Shown: positions 19,998 to 33,218, counted from the stretch's first letter. The stretch: DNA of 64,000 bases from Escherichia coli (GCF_044324785.1 NZ_CP172127.1), one strand, 5' to 3'. Translations and numbers: made by a program. The notes: generated by a model from the sequence alone, not told the origin.

Positions 19998-20243
19998 TTG
20001 AGAGTTACCGGTTTTGATATGGGTGTCGAATCCTTATACAAAACACGGGTAACTCTCATGCTTCATACTACCAATCCCGTTATCAAACACAAAGCCAGTT
20101 TGCTCAATCTGGCTGAAGAACTCAGCAACGTATCAAAAGCCTGTAAAATCATGGGCGTTTCGCGTGATACGTTTTATCGTTACCGCGAACTGGCCGATGA
20201 AGGCAGGGAAAGATTACGAAAGCCCGCTCCCTGCAAGGACTGA
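19998..20243 (+). pseudogene. transposase N-terminal HTH fragment (IS481/IS3-like), truncated
   Basis: 81-aa ORF ...[34 protein letters not shown] matches the GxSRxTxYxWxxRY HTH pattern; 3' end overlaps the H-repeat transposase. Confidence 0.3.
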
Positions 20244-21287
20244 CGCCAGGTAGTTTCTGTCCATGGCTGCTTTTCGCATCTTACGTCTTAACCCTGCCTT
20301 GAATACCTTATCATTCGTTAAAATATTAATAGCGATGTGCCGTATCCCTGAAAATAATTCTGCTGCATTTCCTCTTCTTATTTTGCAGTCGTCTTCATTC
20401 ATTACCACGTCCAGACGCCAGTGCAGCTTATTCTCCACGTGCCAGTGATTTCGGATCGCTGTGGCGAACTTCTCAGCGGTTAAATCAGCAGAACTGATGT
20501 AATATCTGACCGTCATTTCTGGCTCTTTCTTTTGTTCTGCTATTATGGACCGAAAGGAGACTGCCACGCATAATTTCTTCAGTCCTTTCCATTCAAACGT
20601 GAAATCAATAAGTTCATCAGGGACATCGCAAACAATATGAAGACGGATTTCTTCTCTGCCTTGACTTTTTTCACTAATTGCGTAACTGTCATGCTCTGGA
20701 TTATTTAATTCTTTCAGTGGGAATTTTTCCTCAAAGGCTTTATTAAGCCGCCCCTGATTTCCTTTTACAGCGAATAAATAATCACCGCCCTGTTTTTGTA
20801 TCTTCTCTGCGATATCTTTCTGGCAACCCATCGCATCAGTTGTGATAATTTTTCCTTTAATATCCAGCATGTTAAGAAGTTCAGGGATAGCTGTGATCTC
20901 ATTGGATTTCTTATCCGTCCTGATCTGTCCGATGACAAGACTGTGCATTGTTGAGAACGCACTAATGACATGAATCGCTCCCCTGCGGCGACTCTTGTCA
21001 TAAGAATGCCGGAGCGTTTTTCCATCAATTGCAATAACGTCTTTATCATCTGAAGAATGGCAGTCACGCATCCCGTTAATAAAGCACTCGTGAAATTTTA
21101 CAGGACTGATACAGGATACAACTCTGGCAATGGTATCGTGAACAGGAATACCATTTTCAAAATCACCATATTGCTTCAAAAAATCGAGATGTGTTTCCCC
21201 AAAATCCTCTATATCTTCCCAGCATTCTGCACCAGAAATAACGGCACAAATAGTCAACAGTAGAATATCCGACAATTTATGTTCCAC
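20214..21287 (-). CDS. ISAs1-family (H-repeat-associated) transposase; frame extends to ATG at 21350 but is interrupted by an in-frame TAG at 21291..21293
   Basis: 357-aa ORF (V/M)[35 protein letters not shown]... typical of Rhs-linked H-rpt ORF-H; upstream in-frame MELKKLMEHISIIPDYRQA-TAG-K. Confidence 0.8.
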
Positions 21288-21630
21288 TTTCTAGGCTTGT
21301 CTGTAATCGGGGATAATAGAAATATGTTCCATCAATTTTTTCAGTTCCATTTTGTTCTCCTTAATTATGTAAGGAGTATTTGATCATGTATACGCAATAA
21401 AAAACAGCTTTAGGTAATAAGGAATATCTCAATTTTTAAACATAAAATGCGAATTATTTAGTACAAAAAGTGAACTTCTGATGATCTTTCCCTGCCCATT
21501 GGGTTCATTAAGATCAAGAATAATGGGAATATGCTCAAGAAGACTTTGAATGTTCACCAGACGTCCTTTTCTAATATATTTAATTATTTGGCGATTAAAT
21601 TTTAATCAAATCAACAAGGTAAAACCAAGA

Positions 21631-21660
21631 TTAAAGTTGTGATGATAATCACAACTTTAA
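21631..21660. terminator. perfect 13-bp inverted repeat (TTAAAGTTGTGAT-GATA-ATCACAACTTTAA), candidate terminator downstream of the Rhs immunity gene
   Basis: seen directly; on the minus strand it is followed by TCTTGGTTTT. Confidence 0.4.
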
Positions 21661-21696
21661 TGATCTTCCCCTGATTCCTCCAGTCCTTTTATTTGG

Positions 21697-22071
21697 TTAC
21701 TCTAATGGTTTTATTAATTGTAAATTTTTAAATGTCATGCTTAATAAGCCATCAGAAAAATAAAGAAAAAATTTATATATCCTTTTGTTTTTTAATTTCT
21801 TTATATACCCATTACTTATATTACCTGACTTGTGATTATCGATTAACTCAGCAGAATCCATAGCGAACACTAAATCATCTACATCAGAAAATTCAACTAT
21901 CATTTTTTCCCTAATGTTCTCATTTTTATAAATGTCAATAAATAACGTCATGTTAAAATGAGATTCTTTGAATGTCGTTTTTACTTCTAACAAAACCCCA
22001 TCATGCCAGTCAATTGAACTCACAATGTCAAAATCGCTCATTATATAATCTCCATTATCCGTTTTAATCAT
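21697..22071 (-). CDS. ydcD: Rhs-associated immunity protein (YdcD-like), about 124 aa
   Basis: [31 protein letters not shown]...; ATG (22071..22069) overlaps the Rhs stop TGA (22070..22068) as ATGA; no signal peptide; AT-rich. Confidence 0.7.
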
Positions 22072-25000
22072 GGAGTAACAACGTTTGCAGGTATTGACCA
22101 CCAAAGAGGTGGTGCAAGTGAAGGTATAAATCGAATCACTCTATATATAACATACCCTGCGCCAATTGTAGCACCAGTTGCAAGAGCCGCATCAGTAGTT
22201 GATAGCCCGGAGGTTTTGCATGACAGATCTTTACTTGGTTCTGGCTCGAAACCATATTTTTTTGCACATTTCTTAATGCTATTTGGTGCTGATGAGTAAT
22301 CCTCACCATGGGACATACCTCCAAATTCCCCCATTACACCACTCCCATTTTTACACTCCCAATGCAAATGTCTTCCGTCACCAACAGCATCGCCATCTAT
22401 TCGGATTCGACAACCTTTACCACAGTCCTTCCATTTTCCTGAAGTATGAGCTAATCCCAATGGATCAATCCATTGCACAGGATTGTTCATAACATAACTG
22501 TACGGGTTTATTCCCCCCGCCAGCCCTATCGGATCCTGGATGATATACCGCCCCTGCAACGGATCGTAGTACCGGTGACGGTTATAATACAGCCCCGACT
22601 CCTCATCGTGTTGCTGCCCAGGCAGACGGTAGGGCTGGTGCAGGTGATGCGGGTTTTCCTCATTCAGCAGGTTTCCCCACTCATCATACTCCCCGCTCCA
22701 CGCCGTATTGCCGTCTTCGCTGATGAGCGCCAGCGGCAGGCCCCGGTGGTCGCAGTGGTAAAGATGAACTTTTCGCGCCGGTGTGTATTCCGGCTCCACC
22801 TGTCTGGCCAGTTGCTCTACCGTCAGCCCGCACTGCGCAAGCCACGCCCGGCTTTCACTGCTCACGCGGTCTGCCCGGATTTCCCCCTCCAGCCTGTCCA
22901 GCATCCTCACAAGTTCTGCCGGGAACACCACACCGTGTCCGTTCTCGCTCCCTTCCTGCTGCAACTTCTCCGCCAGGCTCCGCCGCTGCGTTTTCTCCCG
23001 CTCGCCGTTGTCTGTTTCGATGCGGATGAGTGGTGTGAAGCTTCCCGGCTCGTATACCGTCTGGATACGTGTGCTGTCGGTCTGCACCGTCGTCAGGTGG
23101 TCGCCGTCCCAGCCGTACCACGTCACCTCCGGTTTACGCGACAGCGACATCCACCCCGTCAGGTCACGTACCCGCCGCCACACCCGTTTACCCGTCCGGC
23201 GGCCCAGCGGGTCGTAGAGGTAGCGGCTCTCCACCTGCGGCTCGCCATGCTGTATCCGCGTGTAGAACACCAGGCGGTGCTGGCTGTCGTAGTGGTAGTG
23301 GTGGGTCCGCTCGTCGTCCGTCCGTATCACACCCGCCGGGATGCGGTCCGTCTTCTCCGTCAGCCTGCCGTATTCATCGTGGCGGTAGACATAGTGCGCA
23401 TCCTCCGCGATGCGGTTATCCGGCCACACTGTGAGTGTACTGTCCGGGTGCAGCTCCGGGTCCGGCAGCCGGTTGCCCGCCGGGTCCGTGGCATACGGGA
23501 TGCGGATGTCCAGGTCCGGTGCGAGGGTGCGCACACTCTCCAGCCTGCCCGTGGCGCTGTAGCCGTATTCCCGCGTCTGTCGCGGGCCGCTGATGCGCAC
23601 CAGGTCGCCGTTGTCATTCCACCCGTAGTCACGGTCATACACCAGGCTGTTCAGGTGCTGGCTCTGTAACTGGCCTGCGGGGGTGTATGTGCTGGTCAGT
23701 TCGTATGCGGCATTACTGCCTGCCATGCTGCCGAAGCTGCGCACCGTCTCCCGGTGCAGCCTGTCCCGCGTATACTCGACCCGCGGCGTCCCGCCCAGCT
23801 TCATTCCCGCCAGGTAACCGCTGCCATACGTCAGCCACTCCACCGGCGGCAGGCTGTCCGGCGTGACGCGGTTTGCCAGCCCCTGCTCGTTGTATGCGTG
23901 TTTCGTCTCATGCTGCCACAGCAGTTCCCCCGTCTCCGGGTTCTCCACCGTCTGGCGTTCGCCGGTCAGGCGGCCTTTATCGTCATAGCCGTAGTGGACC
24001 GCCACACGGTGGCCTTCACTGATATGGCTGAGGGTGGTTAACCACCCGTGCTCATCATACTGCCACTGCTCTGCCGGGTCGCCGTTCACCGTCCGGTGCG
24101 TGATGCGGTCTGCTTCATCGTAGTACCACTGCGTGACCTGCCCCTCATCCTAGCTGCGGATGAGCTGCCCTGTGGCGCTGTACCGGTAACGCTGTGTCCT
24201 GCCATCAAAGCCGCGCTGCTCCGTCAGGCGGTCCAGCACATCGTAGGTAAATTCACTCCGGCTGCCGTTCTCGTTGGTCAGCACGGTGATGCGCCCGGCA
24301 GCGTCATACCCCATGCTGCGCGTCAGCCCGCCTTCCGTCACACTCACCGGACGCCCGCGTTTATCATATGCGATGGTGCTGCGTTTACCGTCCGGTGATA
24401 TCGTTGCTGTCAGGTCGCCTGCGGCACTGTACTCATAACGGGTTTCACGCCCCTGCGCATCCTTCTGCCCTGTCAGCCTGCCGCGGCTGTCATAGAGACT
24501 ATAAATACTGAGACCTTCCTCCCGGTGAACGGCGATTTGTTGACCGTACCGGTCATACTCATACCGCGTCATGTACCCCGAGCAGTCCGTGAAGGCCCGA
24601 AGCTGACCGTACCGGTTTCGCGTTATTCTCCGCGTTACCCCGATTCCGTCTTCCACCGCGCCGGGCAGGCTACTGCGGGGGGAGTCATAAAACCAGCGTG
24701 TAATGTTACCGTTGCGCGAGGTCTCTTCTGCCAGTCGGCCCTGACGGTCATATTTCCGGCTGCTGCGTAAACCATCCGGATATGTCACTGAAGTCAGTTG
24801 CAACTGGCTGTTATAGCCATACCACACCGTCCTGCCGTCCGGCAGTATCACTGAAGTCAGCTTTCCAGACGCCATATGCAGCCGGTTCACCGTCCGCCGC
24901 CCCGCCGCATCCGTCTGCGCCTTCAGCCTCCCCGCCTCATCATACTCGCTGCGGGTGATGCTCCCGTCCGCATGCTCCTTCTTCACCACCCGCTTCAGAC

Positions 25001-26242
25001 CACCTTCGCCTTCCGTGTACAGCACCTCCCGCCGGTTCAGGCTGTCCGTGATGGTCACACGGTCCTGCCCGTACTCAAAGCGGTAGTCCAGTCCCTCCTG
25101 GTTGACCTGCTCCGTCACCCGCCCGGTATCATCATACCGGTAGCGGCTCTCCGGCCTCCCTGCATAATGGCGCGCCACCATCCGCCCGGCGTGCTCCGCA
25201 TCATAAGTAAACCCGCGCACCTGCGTCCCGCTGCGGTCATACACCGCCCGCAGTTCTCCGCTGGCCGTGTACGTGTAGCGCGCCAGCGGCGCAGTCGGCT
25301 GTTCATCCGGGTATGCCGGGTCGTGTGTCAGCCACACCGCCTCCAGACGGATACCGTTATCCGTGCCGTATTCTGTACCGGCGGGCAGCGTGTCGGGGAA
25401 AGCTGAAGAAGAGGAAGCAGAACGGGGACCTGCAGGGGAAGATAAAGACGTGGCGCGCTGTTTACGGAGGGCTTCCGCCCGCTGCGCCTGTGTGGTCAGC
25501 GCCAGATGAAAACGGCGGCCCGCGCCGTCCGTCACCCCCGTCACCGCGCCCGCCGCTTCCCCCTCTGCCGCCCGGTGGAAGGCCAGCGTCCGCCCGAAGC
25601 CGTCCACCACGCCCGTCAGCACCCGGTATGCGGGCGGCTCCGGCGGCAGCACCTCGTCCGCCTCCGGCACCCGCTCCGGCCAGCCGAGTATCAGCCACTG
25701 CCCGGTTGTGCTGGCAGCCATCATATAGATGTGTGGACTCAGACGGACCGCTTCCGGCAACGCCCGCCAGAGCCGCGCAAGCGGGTGGCCTTTGTGCTGT
25801 TTCAGCACCCCGCCCCGCGCCAGCCAGAACGACTCACTGCGGCTGTAACTTATCTCGCCGGGAAACAGGGGTTCAAAGTGAATACTTCTGCCGCCACTGT
25901 CGTTGAGTATCAGGCCTTCATCGCGTATCTGTAAGCGGATATCGAAGGGGGCTTTCCAGCCGGGACCAAACACCCCACCGGCGCGGGTGTCCTGGTCCGG
26001 TAGCTGCTGTAAGCGCGAGAAAGAATAAACGGCAGCGGGCCGGGCAGCGCAAGGTCCGTCTCGCCCGGCAGCACCTTCGCACCCAGTAGCGGGTTCAGCG
26101 GGTTAGCATAGGTAATCCCTCCCGGACACACCGAGCAGGCCACTCCCGTCGGCGCACCTATCAGCCCCCCTGCTGAACCCTGCACAATATCCAGTCCCTT
26201 GCGGGTCATGTCACCCTGCCGCGCCGCCGGTTTTCCGCTCAT
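22068..26242 (-). pseudogene. rhsE: Rhs family protein, full-length copy inactivated by a 1-nt deletion (about 25968) and an in-frame TAG (24150..24152); C-terminal tail differs from the upstream Rhs
   Basis: Three collinear minus ORFs (25910..26242, 24150..25973, 22068..24089) together align along the intact Rhs at 26781..31043; core ends ...[28 protein letters not shown] then a 127-aa unique tail. Confidence 0.8.
22480..24089. repeat. Rhs core segment nearly identical to 27286..28895 (direct repeat, constant offset 4806 bp)
   Basis: Identical encoded protein over about 380 aa ([28 protein letters not shown]...KLQQEGSE) and identical antisense ORFs at 22473..23669 and 27903..28475. Confidence 0.85.
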
Positions 26243-26318: not shown

Positions 26319-26768
26319 TTAAAGCCCACCTATTTCTTGCGACAGAAAAGGGATTTCTTTTTTAATCCAATCTACCATTTCATTTTTTTCAAAACATACG
26401 TTAATGCCATTCACACTTCCACATTCACCAAAACCATCAAAATAAATTTCACATTTATTATTTTTATTCGAAACAATGTCAATCCCCCATCTTATATCGT
26501 TATTCTCCTCCTTCCTGAAATACTTCATTTGCAATAAATCAATTATCTCACCAGCATAAAAATCGCTAACCCCATTCACCACCACTTTATGTTTGTATAT
26601 TCTCTTGAGACCTTCCTTGCTAAGCGGGGTTAAGGTGGTAACATATGCTGGAAGATTAATTATTTCTATCGTTTTCACACTATCTATTCCACACAATTCA
26701 TTCACTCGCCCCATCCCCAATACCGAAGCAGAAAATAGAGACAATAAAACCATCAAATATTTCATCAT
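26319..26768 (-). CDS. candidate immunity protein for the Rhs HExxH tail; predicted exported (N-terminal signal peptide), 149 aa
   Basis: Starts 12 bp after the Rhs stop; MMKYLMVLLSLFSASVLG hydrophobic N-terminus; four Cys (C26, C116, C123, C131); AT-rich. Confidence 0.7.
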   Translation of the reverse strand: MMKYLMVLLSLFSASVLGMGRVNELCGIDSVKTIEIINLPAYVTTLTPLSKEGLKRIYKHKVVVNGVSDFYAGEIIDLLQMKYFRKEENNDIRWGIDIVSNKNNKCEIYFDGFGECGSVNGINVCFEKNEMVDWIKKEIPFLSQEIGGL

Positions 26769-26780
26769 AAAAAAATCTCA

Positions 26781-29700
26781 CTATTCTGGCGTGCCATTTA
26801 TTGTTGCCGTCTGTGTTGGTGTATTCACACGATAATACACTCCATTATATGCTGTTCTGGTACACTCACCTAAAGTTTTCGCCGCATGCTGTTCAATTAA
26901 AGTGATAACTCTCGCCTCTTCTTTATTTTTATATTGTTCATCCGCACGTCTCACAAGCCCCATATAGCCATCCTTATCAATAAGATATAAGTGCGCATGA
27001 GCAAACTCATGCCCCAAACCTAATGCAGGTGATTGTGATTTCGATTTTAAATCAGTTGAACAAAATAAAGCCGCCTTACCATTCCAATATATAGTCATTT
27101 TATCCGGGTCAAATCTAACGTCGGTTTCATCAATATACTCTATCTTTATGGTTTCTTCAGAGCTTGATAAAAAATCTATAGCTTCTTTCATTCGTGAATC
27201 TTGTTTTAAATACTCAACAGCCTGATTAAAATCACTTGGATCATCGTTAACATGGAATTTTAAACCCAAAGAATCTATAAACCGAACAGGGTTTAATGGA
27301 TATTTATACAGATTCCATTCACCTCTTAGCCCGATTGGATCCTGGGTGATATACCTCCCCTGTAGCGGGTCATAGTACCGGTTCCGGTTATAGTACAGTC
27401 CTGATTCCTCATCATGCTGCTGCCCCGGCAGACGGTATGGCTGGTGCAGGTGATGCGGGTTCTCCTCATTCAGCAGGTTGCCCCATTCATCATATTCCCC
27501 ACGCCATTCCGTTGCTCCTTCGGTACTGATGAGCGCCAGCGGCAGCCCCCGGTGGTCACAGTGATAAAGATGAATTTTTCGCTCAGGTAAATAAACCGGC
27601 TCTATCTGTGCCGCCAGCCGCTCCACCGTCAGCCCGCACTGTGCCAGCCACGCCCGGCTTTCACTGCTCACGCGGTCTGCCCGGATTTCCCCCTCCAGCC
27701 TGTCCAGCATCCTCACAAGTTCTGCCGGGAACACCACACCGTAGCCGTCCTCGCTTCCTTCCTGCTGCAACTTCTCCGCCAGGCTCCGCCGCTGCGTTTT
27801 CTCCCGCTCGCCGTTGTCTGTTTCGATGCGGATGAGTGGTGTGAAGCTTCCCGGCTCGTATACCGTCTGGATACGTGTGCTGTCGGTCTGCACCGTCGTC
27901 AGGTGGTCGCCGTCCCAGCCGTACCACGTCACCTCCGGTTTACGCGACAGCGACATCCACCCCGTCAGGTCACGTACCCGCCGCCACACCCGTTTACCCG
28001 TCCGGCGGCCCAGCGGGTCGTAGAGGTAGCGGCTCTCCACCTGCGGCTCGCCATGCTGTATCCGCGTGTAGAACACCAGGCGGTGCTGGCTGTCGTAGTG
28101 GTAGTGGTGGGTCCGCTCGTCGTCCGTCCGTATCACACCCGCCGGGATGCGGTCCGTCTTCTCCGTCAGCCTGCCGTATTCATCGTGGCGGTAGACATAG
28201 TGCGCATCCTCCGCGATGCGGTTATCCGGCCACACTGTGAGTGTACTGTCCGGGTGCAGCTCCGGGTCCGGCAGCCGGTTGCCCGCCGGGTCCGTGGCAT
28301 ACGGGATGCGGATGTCCAGGTCCGGTGCGAGGGTGCGCACACTCTCCAGCCTGCCCGTGGCGCTGTAGCCGTATTCCCGCGTCTGTCGCGGGCCGCTGAT
28401 GCGCACCAGGTCGCCGTTGTCATTCCACCCGTAGTCACGGTCATACACCAGGCTGTTCAGGTGCTGGCTCTGTAACTGGCCTGCGGGGGTGTATGTGCTG
28501 GTCAGTTCGTATGCGGCATTACTGCCTGCCATGCTGCCGAAGCTGCGCACCGTCTCCCGGTGCAGCCTGTCCCGCGTATACTCGACCCGCGGCGTCCCGC
28601 CCAGCTTCATGCCCGCCAGGTAACCGCTGCCATACGTCAGCCACTCCACCGGCGGCAGGCTGTCCGGCGTGACGCGGTTTGCCAGCCCCTGCTCGTTGTA
28701 TGCGTGTTTCGTCTCATGCTGCCACAGCAGTTCCCCCGTCTCCGGGTTCTCCACCGTCTGGCGTTCGCCGGTCAGGCGGCCTTTATCGTCATAGCCGTAG
28801 TGGACCGCCACACGGTGGCCTTCACTGATATGGCTGAGGGTGGTTAACCACCCGTGCTCATCATACTGCCACTGCTCTGCCGGGTCGCCGTTCACCGTCC
28901 GGTGCGTGATGCGGTCTGCTTCATCGTAGTACCAGAGGATGACAAGCCCCTCATCTTCACTCTGCGTGAGTTTTCCGGTCAGGTCATAATGATAACGTTG
29001 CGTCCGCCCGTCAAAGCCGCGCTGCTGTACCAGGCGGTCCAGCGCATCGTAGCTGAAGTCGCTGTGACTGCCGTTCTCGTTGGTCAGGCTGATGACACGT
29101 CCGGCAGCATCGTACTCCATACTGCGCGTCAGCCCGCCCTGCGTGGTGCTGACCGCCTTTCCCCACGCATCGTACTGTGTCTCGCTCCGGTTGCCGTCCG
29201 GGGTGATAACGGCAGTCAGGTCGCCTGCGGCGTTGTACTCATACTGCGTTTCACGGCCCTGTGCGTCTTTCACCGAGGTTAACCGGCCACGGTTGTCATA
29301 GCGGCGGTAACGGCTGATACCTTCCTCACGGTGGACCGCCGTCATCTGACCAAAGCGGTCGTATTCATAACGGGTCTGGTAGCCCGAGCAGTCGGTGAAC
29401 GCCAGCAACTGCCCGTAGCGGCTCCAGGTCATCTGCCGGGTGCTGCCCGTCGCATCCGTTGTCGTCGCCGGTAATTCACTGTGCGGATTATCATAAGCAT
29501 ACCGGATGACGTCCCCACTGCGCGATGTCTCCGTTACCAGCCTGCCCGGTTCATCATATGCCCGGCGGCTCTCCAGCCCGTCCGGGGACACCACTGCCGT
29601 CACCTGGTTCCCGTCGTTATAGTAAAATTTCGTCTCCCGCCCGTCCGGTGTGGTGATGTCCGTGATATCGCCTGACACCACATTCAGACCGTACTCTGTC

Positions 29701-31043
29701 CGCCGTCCCGCCGCGTCCGTCTGCGCCGTAAGCCGCCCCACCGGGTCATACCCGCTGCGCGTGACGCTGCCGTCCGCCAGTTCTTTTTTCACCACCCGTT
29801 TCAGCCCGCCTTCACCTTCTGTATGCAGCACCTCACGCCGGTTCAGGCTGTCCGTGACGGTGATGCGGTCCTGCTCATACTGGTAGCGGTAACTCAGGCC
29901 TGCCGGGTTCAGCTGCTCCACCACCCGCCCCGCATCGTCGTAGCGGTAGCGCATCTCCGGCCTTCCCGCGTAACGGTGCGCCACCATCCGGCCCGGGTGC
30001 TGCGCGTCATACGTGAAAGCGCGCACCTGCGTATTGCTGCGGTCATATACCGCCAGCAGTTCACCGGCTTCCGTATACGTGTACCGCGCCAGTGGCGCAC
30101 CGGGCAGATTCTCCGGGTATGCCGGGTCGTACATCAGCCACACCGCTGAAAGACGGATACCCCTGTCGGGGCCGTATTCCGTACCGGGCAGTGTGTCGGG
30201 GAAAGCTGAGTCTGAAAGAGGGCGGGGGGTGTCAGGGGAAAATAAGGAAGCGGTGTGCTGTTTACGGGCCTCTTCCGCCCGCTGCGCCTGCGTGGTCAGC
30301 ACCAGACGGAACTCCCGCCCGGCACCGTCCGTCACGCCGGTGATTTCCCCGGCCAGGTCACCGGCGGCCTCACGCCGGTACGCCAGCGTCCGCCCGAAGC
30401 GGTCTGCCAGCCCGGTAAGCACCCGGTACGGCGGCAGCGGCGCTGGCAGTACGTCCTCAGCACCCGGCACCCGCTCTGACCACCCCAGTATCCACCACGG
30501 CCCCTGTGCGCTGTTGGTCGCCAGGTAAAGATGCGGGCTTAACCGGATATCCGGCGGCAGCGCCCCCCACAGCCGTGCCAGCGTGTGGCCGTCCGGCTGC
30601 GCTGCCTTACCACCGCGCACCAGCCACATTGACTCGCTGCGGCTGTACACCGCCTCACCCGGCAGCAGCGGCTCAAAGTGAATGCTCCGCCCGCCGTTGT
30701 CGTTGAGTATCAGTCCGTCATCACGTAGCTGTAAGCGGATATCAGAAGGCGCTTTCCAGCCGGGGCCGAAAACGCCCACCGGCGCAGGCGTCTTCGTCCG
30801 GTAGCTGCTGTAGGTGCGGGAGAGAATGAACGGCAGCGGGCCGGGCAGCGCAAGGTCCGTCTCGCCGGGCAGCACCTTCGCCCCCAGCAGCGGATTTACC
30901 GGGTTGCCCGAAGTCATCCCGCCCGGACACACCGAGCACGCCACGCCGGTGGGCGCGCCAATTCTTACACCTGCCGAACCCTGGACAATGGGACCGCCAT
31001 ACTGAGTCATATCTCCCTGACGCGCCGCTGGTTTTCCGCTCAT
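26781..31043 (-). CDS. Rhs family protein with conserved PAAR-like N-terminus, YD-repeat core and C-terminal tail containing an HExxH motif, 1420 aa
   Basis: [42 protein letters not shown]...; YD repeats; core ends ...[27 protein letters not shown]; tail 26781..27260 contains [10 protein letters not shown] (codons at 26997..27011). Confidence 0.9.
27286..28895. repeat. Rhs core segment nearly identical to 22480..24089
   Basis: see paired repeat. Confidence 0.85.
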
Positions 31044-31109: not shown

Positions 31110-33218
31110 TCAGTACTCTCTCATATCCGGCGTATCCTGCTTTTCATCAGGGGTCTTCGGTGGGGATTTCGAGGCTGCACAGTTCCAGTTAATCAACAGT
31201 GAGTCACCATTAACCTGCTCCTTACCCTGCAAATGAATTTTTGTGCCGTTGAGAAAAATTTGTCCGTCCTTAGTCAGCACCAGCCTTGCCTTACCACAGC
31301 AGAGTTCCAGATGCTCACCGGCGGAGTAAATCGCGGTCTGCCCGGTATCATCCTTTTTCGTTTTACCAACGGTGAAGGTAACGTTATTTCCGACTTTGAC
31401 GTCATAACCCAGCCCGACCCTCAACGATTTATGCAAACCGATCTGCGAGGACTGCATCAGGGCCACCGAGGTGTTCATAATGCCACCTACCGTCGTCTGA
31501 TACGCCACGCCCACAGTCAGCGCACGCACAAGTCCAATCGTTTCCACCTGAACAGAGCCCACTTTAATGATCTGGTTACTGCCCACCGTCTCTATCTGGT
31601 TAACACCCACCGTCTGTATCTGATTGTTGGTAACCGCAATCATCTGATTGTTGCCAATGGTCTCAGCATGGTTGTTTATCACATCCGTGGTGCGGTTATT
31701 CAGCACCTCGGTGTTCATATTCTTCTGCGCGTGGATGTAGACCTGTTCTTTCCCTGTCGCATCGTCAAACTTCAGTTCATTAAACCCGCTGCCCTTATAG
31801 GTTTTCGAACGAATGGTCATCTGCGTCTTTGTTCCCGGCAGGCTGCCGGGGGTGCGGTTTTCCTGGTGGTAGGTACGCCCCATAATAATCGGCTGGTCCG
31901 GATCGCCGTTGAGGAAGTCCACAATGACTTCCTGACCCACACGCGGTATCGCCAGGTTGCCAAAGCTGGTGCCTGCCCACGCCTGTGCCACACGGATCCA
32001 GCATGAACTGTCCTGGTTTGACGGGTTATAGCGGTCCCAGTTAAATTTCACCCGCACGCGGCCATGTTCATCACAGAAGATTTCCTCGCCTGCCGGTCCT
32101 GTCACGACGGCGCTCTGCGGGCCATCCACCAGCGGTTTCAGCAACGGCTGTGGTCGCCATGTTCTGTCTGCCGGTATTACCGCAAAGTGGTTATTCAGTG
32201 TGGTACCCGAACCACTGCGTCCCGGCACCGCCTGCGGCTGCTCGCCGTGCAGATCGCTCGCCACCACCTGCCATTCACGGTTCAGGTTCGCCTGCGGATG
32301 CCCCGTCAGCGCAATTCGCCGTCCCGGCCATATCTCCGGCGAACGGCTTGTTCCGCGCGCCACTTCTGCGTTGTTTCGCCAGCCATCCATCTGCCAGCGG
32401 GCAAAGTTCTGCCCGTGGGCACCCTTGAAACGTCCGGGGTAGTCATACACTTCATACTGTGTGCGCTGGTAATCCTGGTGCTGGCCTTCCTGATCAAAAC
32501 GCCCTGCCCAGCCGGGTCGTTTAAAGGTGTAGTCTTTGGTCACCACGGAAGATGGGCGGATTTGTGCGCTGTAGCGGAACTGGCTGATGCAGAGGGTGCT
32601 CACCTCGGTACGGGTGTTCGGATTCCAGGGGATCTCAAAGGACTCCGGCAGATAACGCACGGTGTCGCACAGGACCAGGCTCTGGTCGGTACTTTTTTGC
32701 GCGTGCTCCTCATAAAAGAAGATGCCTTCCTCCGCCGCCATCCGGCACAGGAAATCGTAATCGGTCTCACCGTACTGGACACAAAATTCACGGGAAGGAT
32801 GCGGCTCGCTGAACAGCGGACTCCACTCGGTCACCCCGTTTTCTTTCAGGATCGTCACGAGGATGCTTTCGATGTCCTCATTCTGGAAGATACGGAAGTT
32901 CTGGCGCAGCCCTGTGCGCCACAGCGGTGGGCACACCTTCATGCTGTACAGCATCTGGTTTTTGTCGTTCTCCCCCAGTTCAAACCAGGTCACCACACCT
33001 TTCACCCGGCGCTGTACGTCATCGCCCTGCCATACCGTCAGGTAGGCCATTTTGTCCAGCACCTGCGCAAATTCAAGGGAAAGAAACTGCTGACTGACCA
33101 GAGAAAGGTCGAGGGAAAAAAGTGAAGAGAGTGACTGGTTCAGATGAAAGGAGACCACCGCAAACGCGTCCGGTGGCAGGCCGTCCACTTCCAGCGTGAA
33201 ACGTAATCCGGTTGACAT
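31110..33218 (-). CDS. vgrG: VgrG (type VI secretion spike protein), about 702 aa
   Basis: MSTGLRFTLEVDGLPPDAFAVVSFHLNQSLSSLFSLDLSLVS... with GGAGG RBS; ends 67 bp before the Rhs start; track ORF extends to 33323 but the RBS supports 33218. Confidence 0.88.
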   Translation of the reverse strand: MSTGLRFTLEVDGLPPDAFAVVSFHLNQSLSSLFSLDLSLVSQQFLSLEFAQVLDKMAYLTVWQGDDVQRRVKGVVTWFELGENDKNQMLYSMKVCPPLWRTGLRQNFRIFQNEDIESILVTILKENGVTEWSPLFSEPHPSREFCVQYGETDYDFLCRMAAEEGIFFYEEHAQKSTDQSLVLCDTVRYLPESFEIPWNPNTRTEVSTLCISQFRYSAQIRPSSVVTKDYTFKRPGWAGRFDQEGQHQDYQRTQYEVYDYPGRFKGAHGQNFARWQMDGWRNNAEVARGTSRSPEIWPGRRIALTGHPQANLNREWQVVASDLHGEQPQAVPGRSGSGTTLNNHFAVIPADRTWRPQPLLKPLVDGPQSAVVTGPAGEEIFCDEHGRVRVKFNWDRYNPSNQDSSCWIRVAQAWAGTSFGNLAIPRVGQEVIVDFLNGDPDQPIIMGRTYHQENRTPGSLPGTKTQMTIRSKTYKGSGFNELKFDDATGKEQVYIHAQKNMNTEVLNNRTTDVINNHAETIGNNQMIAVTNNQIQTVGVNQIETVGSNQIIKVGSVQVETIGLVRALTVGVAYQTTVGGIMNTSVALMQSSQIGLHKSLRVGLGYDVKVGNNVTFTVGKTKKDDTGQTAIYSAGEHLELCCGKARLVLTKDGQIFLNGTKIHLQGKEQVNGDSLLINWNCAASKSPPKTPDEKQDTPDMREY

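Follow-up and report, generated by a model that had tools for sequence, protein, structure and literature searches.

A two-module Rhs tip of Escherichia coli: a conserved Cys/His domain with its own immunity family, joined to a Tox-WTIP end

We analysed the C-terminal tip of the second of two rhs genes, together with the small gene behind it, in a 64,000-nucleotide stretch of Escherichia coli DNA (GCF_044324785.1, NZ_CP172127.1), hereafter the window. The tip consists of two modules, a Cys/His domain of about 70 residues and a hydrophobic end belonging to the Pfam family Tox-WTIP, and the downstream gene encodes a member of an immunity family that tracks the Cys/His domain. Judged from sequence comparisons and predicted structures, the tip is best read as a membrane-tethered enzymatic toxin, possibly a nuclease, a reading to which we give somewhat better than even chances. 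Rhs tips are a main source of new antibacterial activities. The present one is found in roughly 7% of complete E. coli genomes, where its gene products bear no annotation beyond "RHS element core protein" and "hypothetical protein". The co-inherited tip and partner gene appear to constitute a toxin/immunity cassette of the Rhs kind, which is a known kind. The arrangement itself is unsurprising, and its interest for the field of type VI secretion system (T6SS) and polymorphic toxins is moderate. The Cys/His domain and its immunity family are unannotated, and uncharacterised in the literature searched, whereas the C-terminal part of the tail is already known and in Pfam.

The tail comprises a conserved Cys/His domain and a Tox-WTIP end

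The tail, the ATGA overlap and the downstream open reading frame (ORF) were all read from the window sequence on the minus strand. The ORF at 22068–24089 (minus strand) runs through the DPIGL-(18)-DPLGL sequence and then through a tail of 127 residues at 22071–22451, and ends at the TGA at 22068–22070. In Rhs proteins, a DPxGL-(18)-DPxGL sequence shows where the core ends and where self-cleavage occurs, a role described for Tse5 (PMC9637101). The core end, the tail length, the TGA/ATG overlap and a 124-codon frame behind it had all been given in a preliminary description of this DNA and are borne out by the sequence. The features of the region are as follows.

22452–22535, minus strand: end of the Rhs core, DPIGL-(18)-DPLGL, found by a regular-expression match on the translation
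22242–22451, minus strand: tail residues 1–70, Cys4/His3 domain, with CGKGC, IRID, RHLHWEC, GE, SHG and CA..GF
22194–22241, minus strand: linker between the tail modules, 16 residues, Pro/Ser-rich in the family
22071–22193, minus strand: tail residues 87–127, Tox-WTIP hydrophobic module, with RVIR (RxxR) and WWSIP (Wx[ST]IP)
22068–22071, minus strand: ATGA, in which the Rhs stop codon overlaps the first ATG in frame with the downstream ORF, read from the sequence
22050–22053, minus strand: GGAG, resembling a Shine-Dalgarno site, 8 nt ahead of the second ATG (22041)
21697–22041, minus strand: immunity gene, 114 amino acids (aa), product soluble and mostly beta, with an invariant H13-D14-G15

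When residues 1–82 of the tail were compared with 1.84 billion representative sequences by HMMER, 65 clusters were matched at E<1e-3 and 47 at E<1e-10. The matches to the Cys/His domain (hereafter the N-domain) lie mostly at the C termini of Rhs/YD proteins, directly after DPxGL. In an alignment of 48 family sequences, H28, W31, C33, H48, C62 and A63 are invariant, and C10, C14, R17, R27, H30, E42, S47 and P56 are conserved in at least 90%. The N-domain is basic, with an isoelectric point (pI) of 8.8 (family mean 8.0). AlphaFold2, run with the family alignment, gave a predicted local distance difference test score (pLDDT) of 89–97 for residues 1–70, with strands predicted at 7–11, 14–20, 27–33 and 36–41 and a helix at 57–65. 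The score was 72 at residues 71–80, about 49 at residues 81–100 and about 50–60 over the rest, and the segments equivalent to the linker are variable and often Pro-rich in the homologues.

The last ~40 residues of the tail, a hydrophobic and proline-rich stretch, match Tox-WTIP (PF15654) in Pfam with an E value of 1.7e-13 and a score of 51.0, over model positions 36–79 of 79, and both motifs of that family are present, as RVIR and WWSIP. Tox-WTIP was described as a predicted pore-forming toxin with two membrane helices, an association with RHS proteins, and RxxR and Wx[ST]IP motifs, and no immunity protein for it was known in that survey (Zhang et al., 2012, PMC3482391); nothing besides the survey was found in the literature on Tox-WTIP. 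The WTIP segment of the window is weakly hydrophobic, its maximal 19-residue Kyte-Doolittle hydropathy (KD19) being 1.32 against a cut-off of 1.6, and AlphaFold2 placed one short helix (98–107) in it at a pLDDT of about 50–60. The ends found among 53 family members are diverse: six are of the WTIP type, six consist of an "AEPCG" Gly-rich helix, 25 are otherwise strongly hydrophobic and 16 are weak or absent. Conversely, WTIP stands behind an unrelated N-terminal part in one protein (P0020).

The N-domain itself was matched by no entry of NCBIfam, PHROGs or PADLOC, by no PDB sequence in phmmer and profile searches, and by no Pfam model in any of the 48 family members, and a Foldseek search of AFDB50 returned only its own family. 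Likewise, neither HMM nor fold comparison linked it to the HNH/His-Me finger or any other known nuclease toxin family. An HNH/EndoVII-like His-Me finger was considered for the CxxxC...HxH...C pattern and was supported by no tool. The statement in the preliminary description that the toxin family was not recognisable thus stands for the N-domain, and gives way to the Tox-WTIP assignment for the last ~40 residues.

Frameshifted variants of the tail, in which the Cys/His domain is kept and the WTIP end is lost, were seen in E. coli and a metagenome (P0005, P0009 and P0014, the first of them representing 52 member sequences). Such natural truncations could serve to ask whether the tail is needed. 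In addition, orphan modules of tip and immunity gene that start just before DPLGL were seen in two loci (L005, 5586–6237, and L006, 6373–7024), where they lie behind a different Rhs, among an array of further tip/immunity modules. One gene of this array has a faint Peptidase_M91 match.

The immunity family accompanies the Cys/His domain

The gene immediately downstream was examined in independent loci, one of which carries WTIP without the N-domain. Among the loci with a WTIP-tailed N-domain, an immunity homologue was found in Paraburkholderia (L008; 39% identity, E 3e-26), in L007 (E 2e-11) and in Citrobacter (L016). Essentially the same was observed for other tail types: a homologue follows the AEPCG-type tail of L010 (E 9e-22) and the Pro-rich tail without a transmembrane (TM) segment of L015 (E 5e-18), and in L013, where the hydrophobic end is short, one lies directly after the Rhs at about 6730–7030 (profile hidden Markov model (HMM) E 8.5e-15). 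The L013 ORF had been missed by the gene caller in the source annotation. The gene downstream is unrelated at the WTIP-only locus (L011), and also at one N-domain locus (L014; 209 aa). A scan of genome contigs with the immunity profile returned one locus, the peptide pattern derived for it being narrow. The presence of immunity homologues across tail types, together with their absence at the WTIP-only locus, indicates that the immunity family tracks the Cys/His domain and not the membrane tail.

Of 5426 complete E. coli genomes, 405 carry the DNA of tail and ORF, and 357 of these copies are at least 99% identical. The tip and its partner gene are also adjacent in Citrobacter, Paraburkholderia and metagenomic loci. 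The toxin/immunity arrangement that had been proposed for this pair is therefore upheld by its recurrence in E. coli and by adjacent homologues in distant Proteobacteria.

The immunity protein is predicted to share the fold of PIM7

No signal peptide or TM segment was found in any of the 23 aligned immunity sequences. The maximal KD19 is 0.81 for the 114-aa protein of the window and 1.55 for the whole family, and the protein is acidic (pI 5.3; family mean 5.7). AlphaFold2 predicted a mostly beta structure with a short N-terminal helix, at a pLDDT of 89.7 and a predicted template modelling score of 0.81, and the invariant H13-D14-G15 of the family stands right after this helix.

In the predicted model, the fold is the same as that of PIM7 (PDB 8OWU, chain E). 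A sequence link between the immunity family and PIM7 was considered and none was found, profile searches of PDB sequences with the family gave no match, and the cognate toxin is not of the PT7 family. PIM7 covers the catalytic pocket of PT7(Bc), and an Asp at its alpha1-betaA loop contacts the catalytic residues (bioRxiv 10.1101/2021.10.19.465003). By analogy, the Asp of H13-D14-G15 may be equivalent to this PIM7 residue. Imm50 (PF15594) was also considered. The sole link to it is the UniRef name "Immunity protein 50" of the 39%-identical Paraburkholderia homologue (P0106), and no Pfam match to Imm50 was obtained for the window protein at E values up to 10 or for seven homologues at E values up to 0.1.

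The second ATG is the probable start of the immunity gene

The ATG of the overlap, at 22069–22071, opens a 124-codon frame ending at 21697, and translational coupling through the ATGA had been described for the pair. The relatives do not support such coupling as a defining feature, since the overlap start codon is not conserved in them as an immunity start. The corresponding sequence is ATAG followed by an in-frame stop in L003, ATAA in L004 and TAATAA in L016, and spacers of 17–27 nt replace the overlap in L007, L008 and L010. In the 23-sequence alignment, all 22 homologues start at M11 of the 124-aa frame, and the 114-aa form is the one annotated by RefSeq (WP_001279013.1) in every genome inspected.

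The ribosome-binding signals agree with this. The overlap ATG has no Shine-Dalgarno sequence, whereas the second ATG has its GGAG, and AATGGA(G/A) stands 7–8 nt ahead of the second ATG in the close relatives L003–L006. What looks like conservation of "NG.Y" within the 10-codon extension falls on this AATGGAG ribosome-binding site. These sequence comparisons suggest that the immunity gene is most likely 21697–22041, starting at the second ATG and encoding 114 aa. Its start, 26 nt past the Rhs stop codon, is near enough for operon-type coupling, and the ATGA overlap is incidental.

The carrier Rhs is a pseudogene in the window and intact in some other strains

The second Rhs is a pseudogene in the window, a point absent from the preliminary description. 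It is disrupted by a 1-bp deletion near 25974, which became apparent when it was aligned with the intact orthologue (1384 aa) of strain PCN033, and by an in-frame TAG at 24150–24152, where the first Rhs of the window (Rhs1) has a Glu in translation. The frame is split into ORFs of 110, 607 and 673 codons, and no intact frame remains that would carry a PAAR-type N-terminus for loading onto VgrG. The frameshift and the nonsense codon together make the toxin undeliverable from this copy. The genes concerned are as follows.

31110–33218, minus strand: VgrG, first in the order of the minus strand
26781–31043, minus strand: Rhs1, 1420 aa, with an HExxH tip
26319–26768, minus strand: partner gene of Rhs1, 149 aa
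22068–26242, minus strand: second Rhs, pseudogene in the window, with a PAAR-type N-terminus, YD-repeat core and variable tail

Strain N3 is the closest complete genome (99.7% identity over 12.5 kb), and its copy is annotated "frameshifted; internal stop". Among six E. coli genomes inspected, the tail-bearing Rhs is intact and directly after VgrG in four (PCN033, WP4-S18-ESBL-07, JNE23-011 and 19KM1776), and broken in two (N3 and elppa4). In RefSeq, the intact orthologue goes by the name "RHS element core protein". The VgrG gene ahead of this rhs carries a frameshift annotation in PCN033 (L001), WP4-S18-ESBL-07 (L017) and elppa4 (L019), the first two of which keep their Rhs intact. In JNE23-011 this VgrG gene is truncated at its N-terminal end, and in the window, N3 and 19KM1776 it is intact. 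The varied state of VgrG among the sampled strains indicates that the delivery competence of the locus differs by strain.

The two rhs genes of the window share a ~1.1-kb block of ~100% identity (about 23005–24105 and about 27811–28911, minus strand), whereas their 5' two-thirds are only 50–89% identical in 100-nt windows. The block suggests recent gene conversion, and it is a substrate for tip exchange between neighbouring rhs genes. The TAG of the second Rhs sits just 5' of this block.

Proposed mechanism and alternative explanations

We propose that the tip belongs to a T6SS-associated Rhs effector of the rhsE locus and is encoded with a cognate immunity gene. The N-domain would be the toxic part, an enzyme that acts in the cytoplasm of the target cell and is recognised by the immunity protein, which we consider slightly more probable than the opposite. 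Its likeliest activity would be that of a metal-dependent nuclease, a tentative assignment that is, taken alone, doubtful. The CxxxC knuckle (C10/C14), C33 and C62 would form a Cys4 site holding a structural metal, and the conserved cluster of His, Glu, Arg and Asp would be the active site. A flexible Pro-rich linker would join this domain to the C-terminal hydrophobic module, here Tox-WTIP, which would target the toxin to the inner membrane or insert it there, as an anchor or for entry, and would not be the primary poison. The 114-aa acidic, signal-less beta-protein would bind and block the N-domain.

In this genome, another Rhs cassette has displaced the carrier Rhs from VgrG, and the frameshift and the nonsense codon have inactivated it, which leaves the toxin as a silent, orphan-like module. 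The intact immunity gene may still guard the cell against kin with a working copy of this Rhs, and the tip could be recombined onto the live Rhs1 by way of the ~1.1-kb block that the two genes share. For this genome, the toxin copy is dead and the immunity gene is probably what is maintained.

A different assignment of roles would make the Tox-WTIP tail the poison, which would act on the inner membrane as a pore-former or ionophore and depolarise it as Tse5-CT does, with the Cys/His domain as an accessory, for example a packaging or solubility handle or a docking site for the immunity protein, which would keep the toxin off the producer's own membrane. We regard this as unlikely, but it is the alternative with most in its favour: Zhang et al. 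place Tox-WTIP and its two membrane helices among the pore-forming toxins, a pore-forming Rhs tip is established in Tse5 (PMC9637101), 37 of the 53 family members have a strongly hydrophobic end, and the N-domain matches no known enzyme fold. It is difficult to reconcile, however, with the immunity protein, because the known immunity proteins against membrane toxins, such as Tsi5, are integral membrane proteins, whereas the one found here is soluble and its family lacks a hydrophobic segment. Moreover, this family accompanies the N-domain whatever the tail, even where the tail has no TM segment (L015), and is absent from the WTIP-only locus. The tails are interchangeable, poorly conserved and sometimes absent, whereas the invariant residues, His, Cys and Trp among them, all lie in the N-domain together with a near-invariant Glu, and the WTIP segment of the window is proline-rich and below the hydropathy cut-off.

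An N-domain acting in the periplasm at the outer face of the inner membrane, for example on a lipid carrier or the envelope, with two disulfides and a C-terminal anchor, is a considerably weaker proposal and in our view improbable. The periplasm is a common destination of T6SS effectors, and both the four near-invariant cysteines within a 70-aa domain and the architecture of a tether plus an anchor are in keeping with it. The downstream protein would then shield only the producer's cytoplasm before export. To protect sister cells from a toxin in the periplasm, however, an immunity protein must itself be periplasmic or in the membrane, and signal peptides and TM segments are lacking in all 23 aligned sequences; the CxxxC knuckle, the Cys after strand 3 and the helix Cys would also fit a single Cys4 metal site. 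To the view that the region is a decaying remnant in this genome, with tail and ORF neither expressed nor selected, we likewise give little credence. Two inactivating lesions in the carrier Rhs, an internal stop in the adjacent ISAs1 transposase, and promoter-like matches at chance level (5 found, 5.0 expected) speak for decay, whereas neither the tail frame nor the immunity frame is broken and both show 100% identity to their counterparts in strains with an intact Rhs, the immunity ORF retains its Shine-Dalgarno site, and orphan modules of tip and immunity gene are maintained in arrays in other bacteria (L005, L006 and L010).

Taken at its boldest, the enzymatic reading would hold that a ~70-aa Cys4/His3 mini-enzyme family is the real toxin, that WTIP is one of several plug-in modules for membrane targeting or cytoplasm entry and no toxin, and that the immunity protein is an active-site plug of the PIM7 or Imm50 kind; the chances of this whole proposal fall a little short of even. 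If it is true, the family spans proteobacterial Rhs proteins and is always tethered by a Pro linker to an interchangeable membrane module. Tox-WTIP and similar hydrophobic ends would then have to be seen as serving delivery or anchoring and not pore formation, much like the entry domains of contact-dependent inhibition toxins but at the C terminus, which bears on how T6SS cargo enters the cytoplasm. If the Cys/His domain is catalytic, it represents a new toxin family, and the immunity family matched to it is structurally tied to the PT7/PIM7 DNase system.

Genomic context

The locus is the rhsE-type island of E. coli, in which ansP is followed by vgrG, rhs, the immunity gene and ISAs1/ydcC, and then by nar genes. 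The G+C content drops along the cassette, being ~63% for the Rhs core, ~40% for the tail and 27–31% for the downstream ORF, as expected of a swapped-in Rhs tip. Two further features lie beyond the immunity gene.

20214–21350, minus strand: ISAs1 (ydcC / H-repeat) transposase, after the immunity gene, with an internal stop near codon 20
21630–21661, minus strand: 14-bp perfect hairpin, terminator-like, ~35 nt past the stop codon of the immunity gene

The transposase reads MELKKLMEHISIIPDYRQA immediately before its internal stop, and its counterpart in strain N3 is also annotated with an internal stop. The hairpin has the form ATTAAAGTTGTGAT-TATC-ATCACAACTTTAAT, followed by a T-rich run, and may be a terminator; since a scan of the region returned two such sites against 1.3 expected by chance, this is weak evidence for one.

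The cassette of Rhs1 is distinct. As had been proposed, its HExxH tail is unrelated to the tail described here, and so is its partner, with BLASTP E values of 4.0 and 0.027, respectively, each from a single comparison, so that the locus carries two different cassettes. The Rhs1 tip (26781–27260, HEFAH motif) showed only a weak Pfam match, to Peptidase_M91 (E 0.055). The 149-aa partner has a hydrophobic N-terminus resembling a signal peptide, and its best Pfam match (E 0.017) is not significant. This cassette is poorly annotated and may act in the periplasm.

Comparison with known systems

A related system with a hydrophobic Rhs tip is Tse5-CT/Tsi5 of Pseudomonas aeruginosa, in which the C-terminal toxin likewise follows DPxGL-(18)-DPxGL and has hydrophobic segments. 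We know of no separate conserved Cys/His domain in Tse5-CT. The tail had no sequence match among the PDB chains searched, a set in which the presence of a Tse5 entry is unconfirmed. Tse5-CT has membrane-inserting segments and forms ion-selective pores, and Tsi5, which has two TM regions, is an integral membrane protein (PMC9637101), whereas the immunity protein of the present pair is soluble.

On the immunity side, the protein resembles Imm50 in being mostly beta, and differs from it in having no Pfam Imm50 match. Imm50 (PF15594) is linked to the HNH-fold Tox-HHH (Tox-EHHH in the toxin table) and to Ntox24 (Zhang et al., 2012). With PIM7, the PT7 immunity protein (PDB 8OWU), the present protein shares the predicted fold, in contrast to the lack of detectable sequence homology. 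The toxin countered by PIM7, PT7(Bc), is a Bacillus cereus LXG toxin, a Mg-dependent, EDTA-sensitive, non-specific DNase with a novel fold (bioRxiv 10.1101/2021.10.19.465003).

For the tail, Tox-WTIP as described in Pfam differs from the module found here in that the match is confined to the second half of the model, several other tails can take the place of WTIP behind the conserved domain, and the immunity family goes with that domain and not with WTIP. Overall, the system resembles the E. coli rhs/T6SS Rhs toxins in its PAAR-type N-terminus, YD-repeat core, DPxGL-(18)-DPxGL and low-G+C tip, as well as in its small adjacent immunity gene, upstream VgrG and flanking ISAs1 (H-repeat). Unlike typical T6SS Rhs toxins, the copy in the window is inactivated and orphan-like, standing second behind another Rhs, and its tip is built of two modules.

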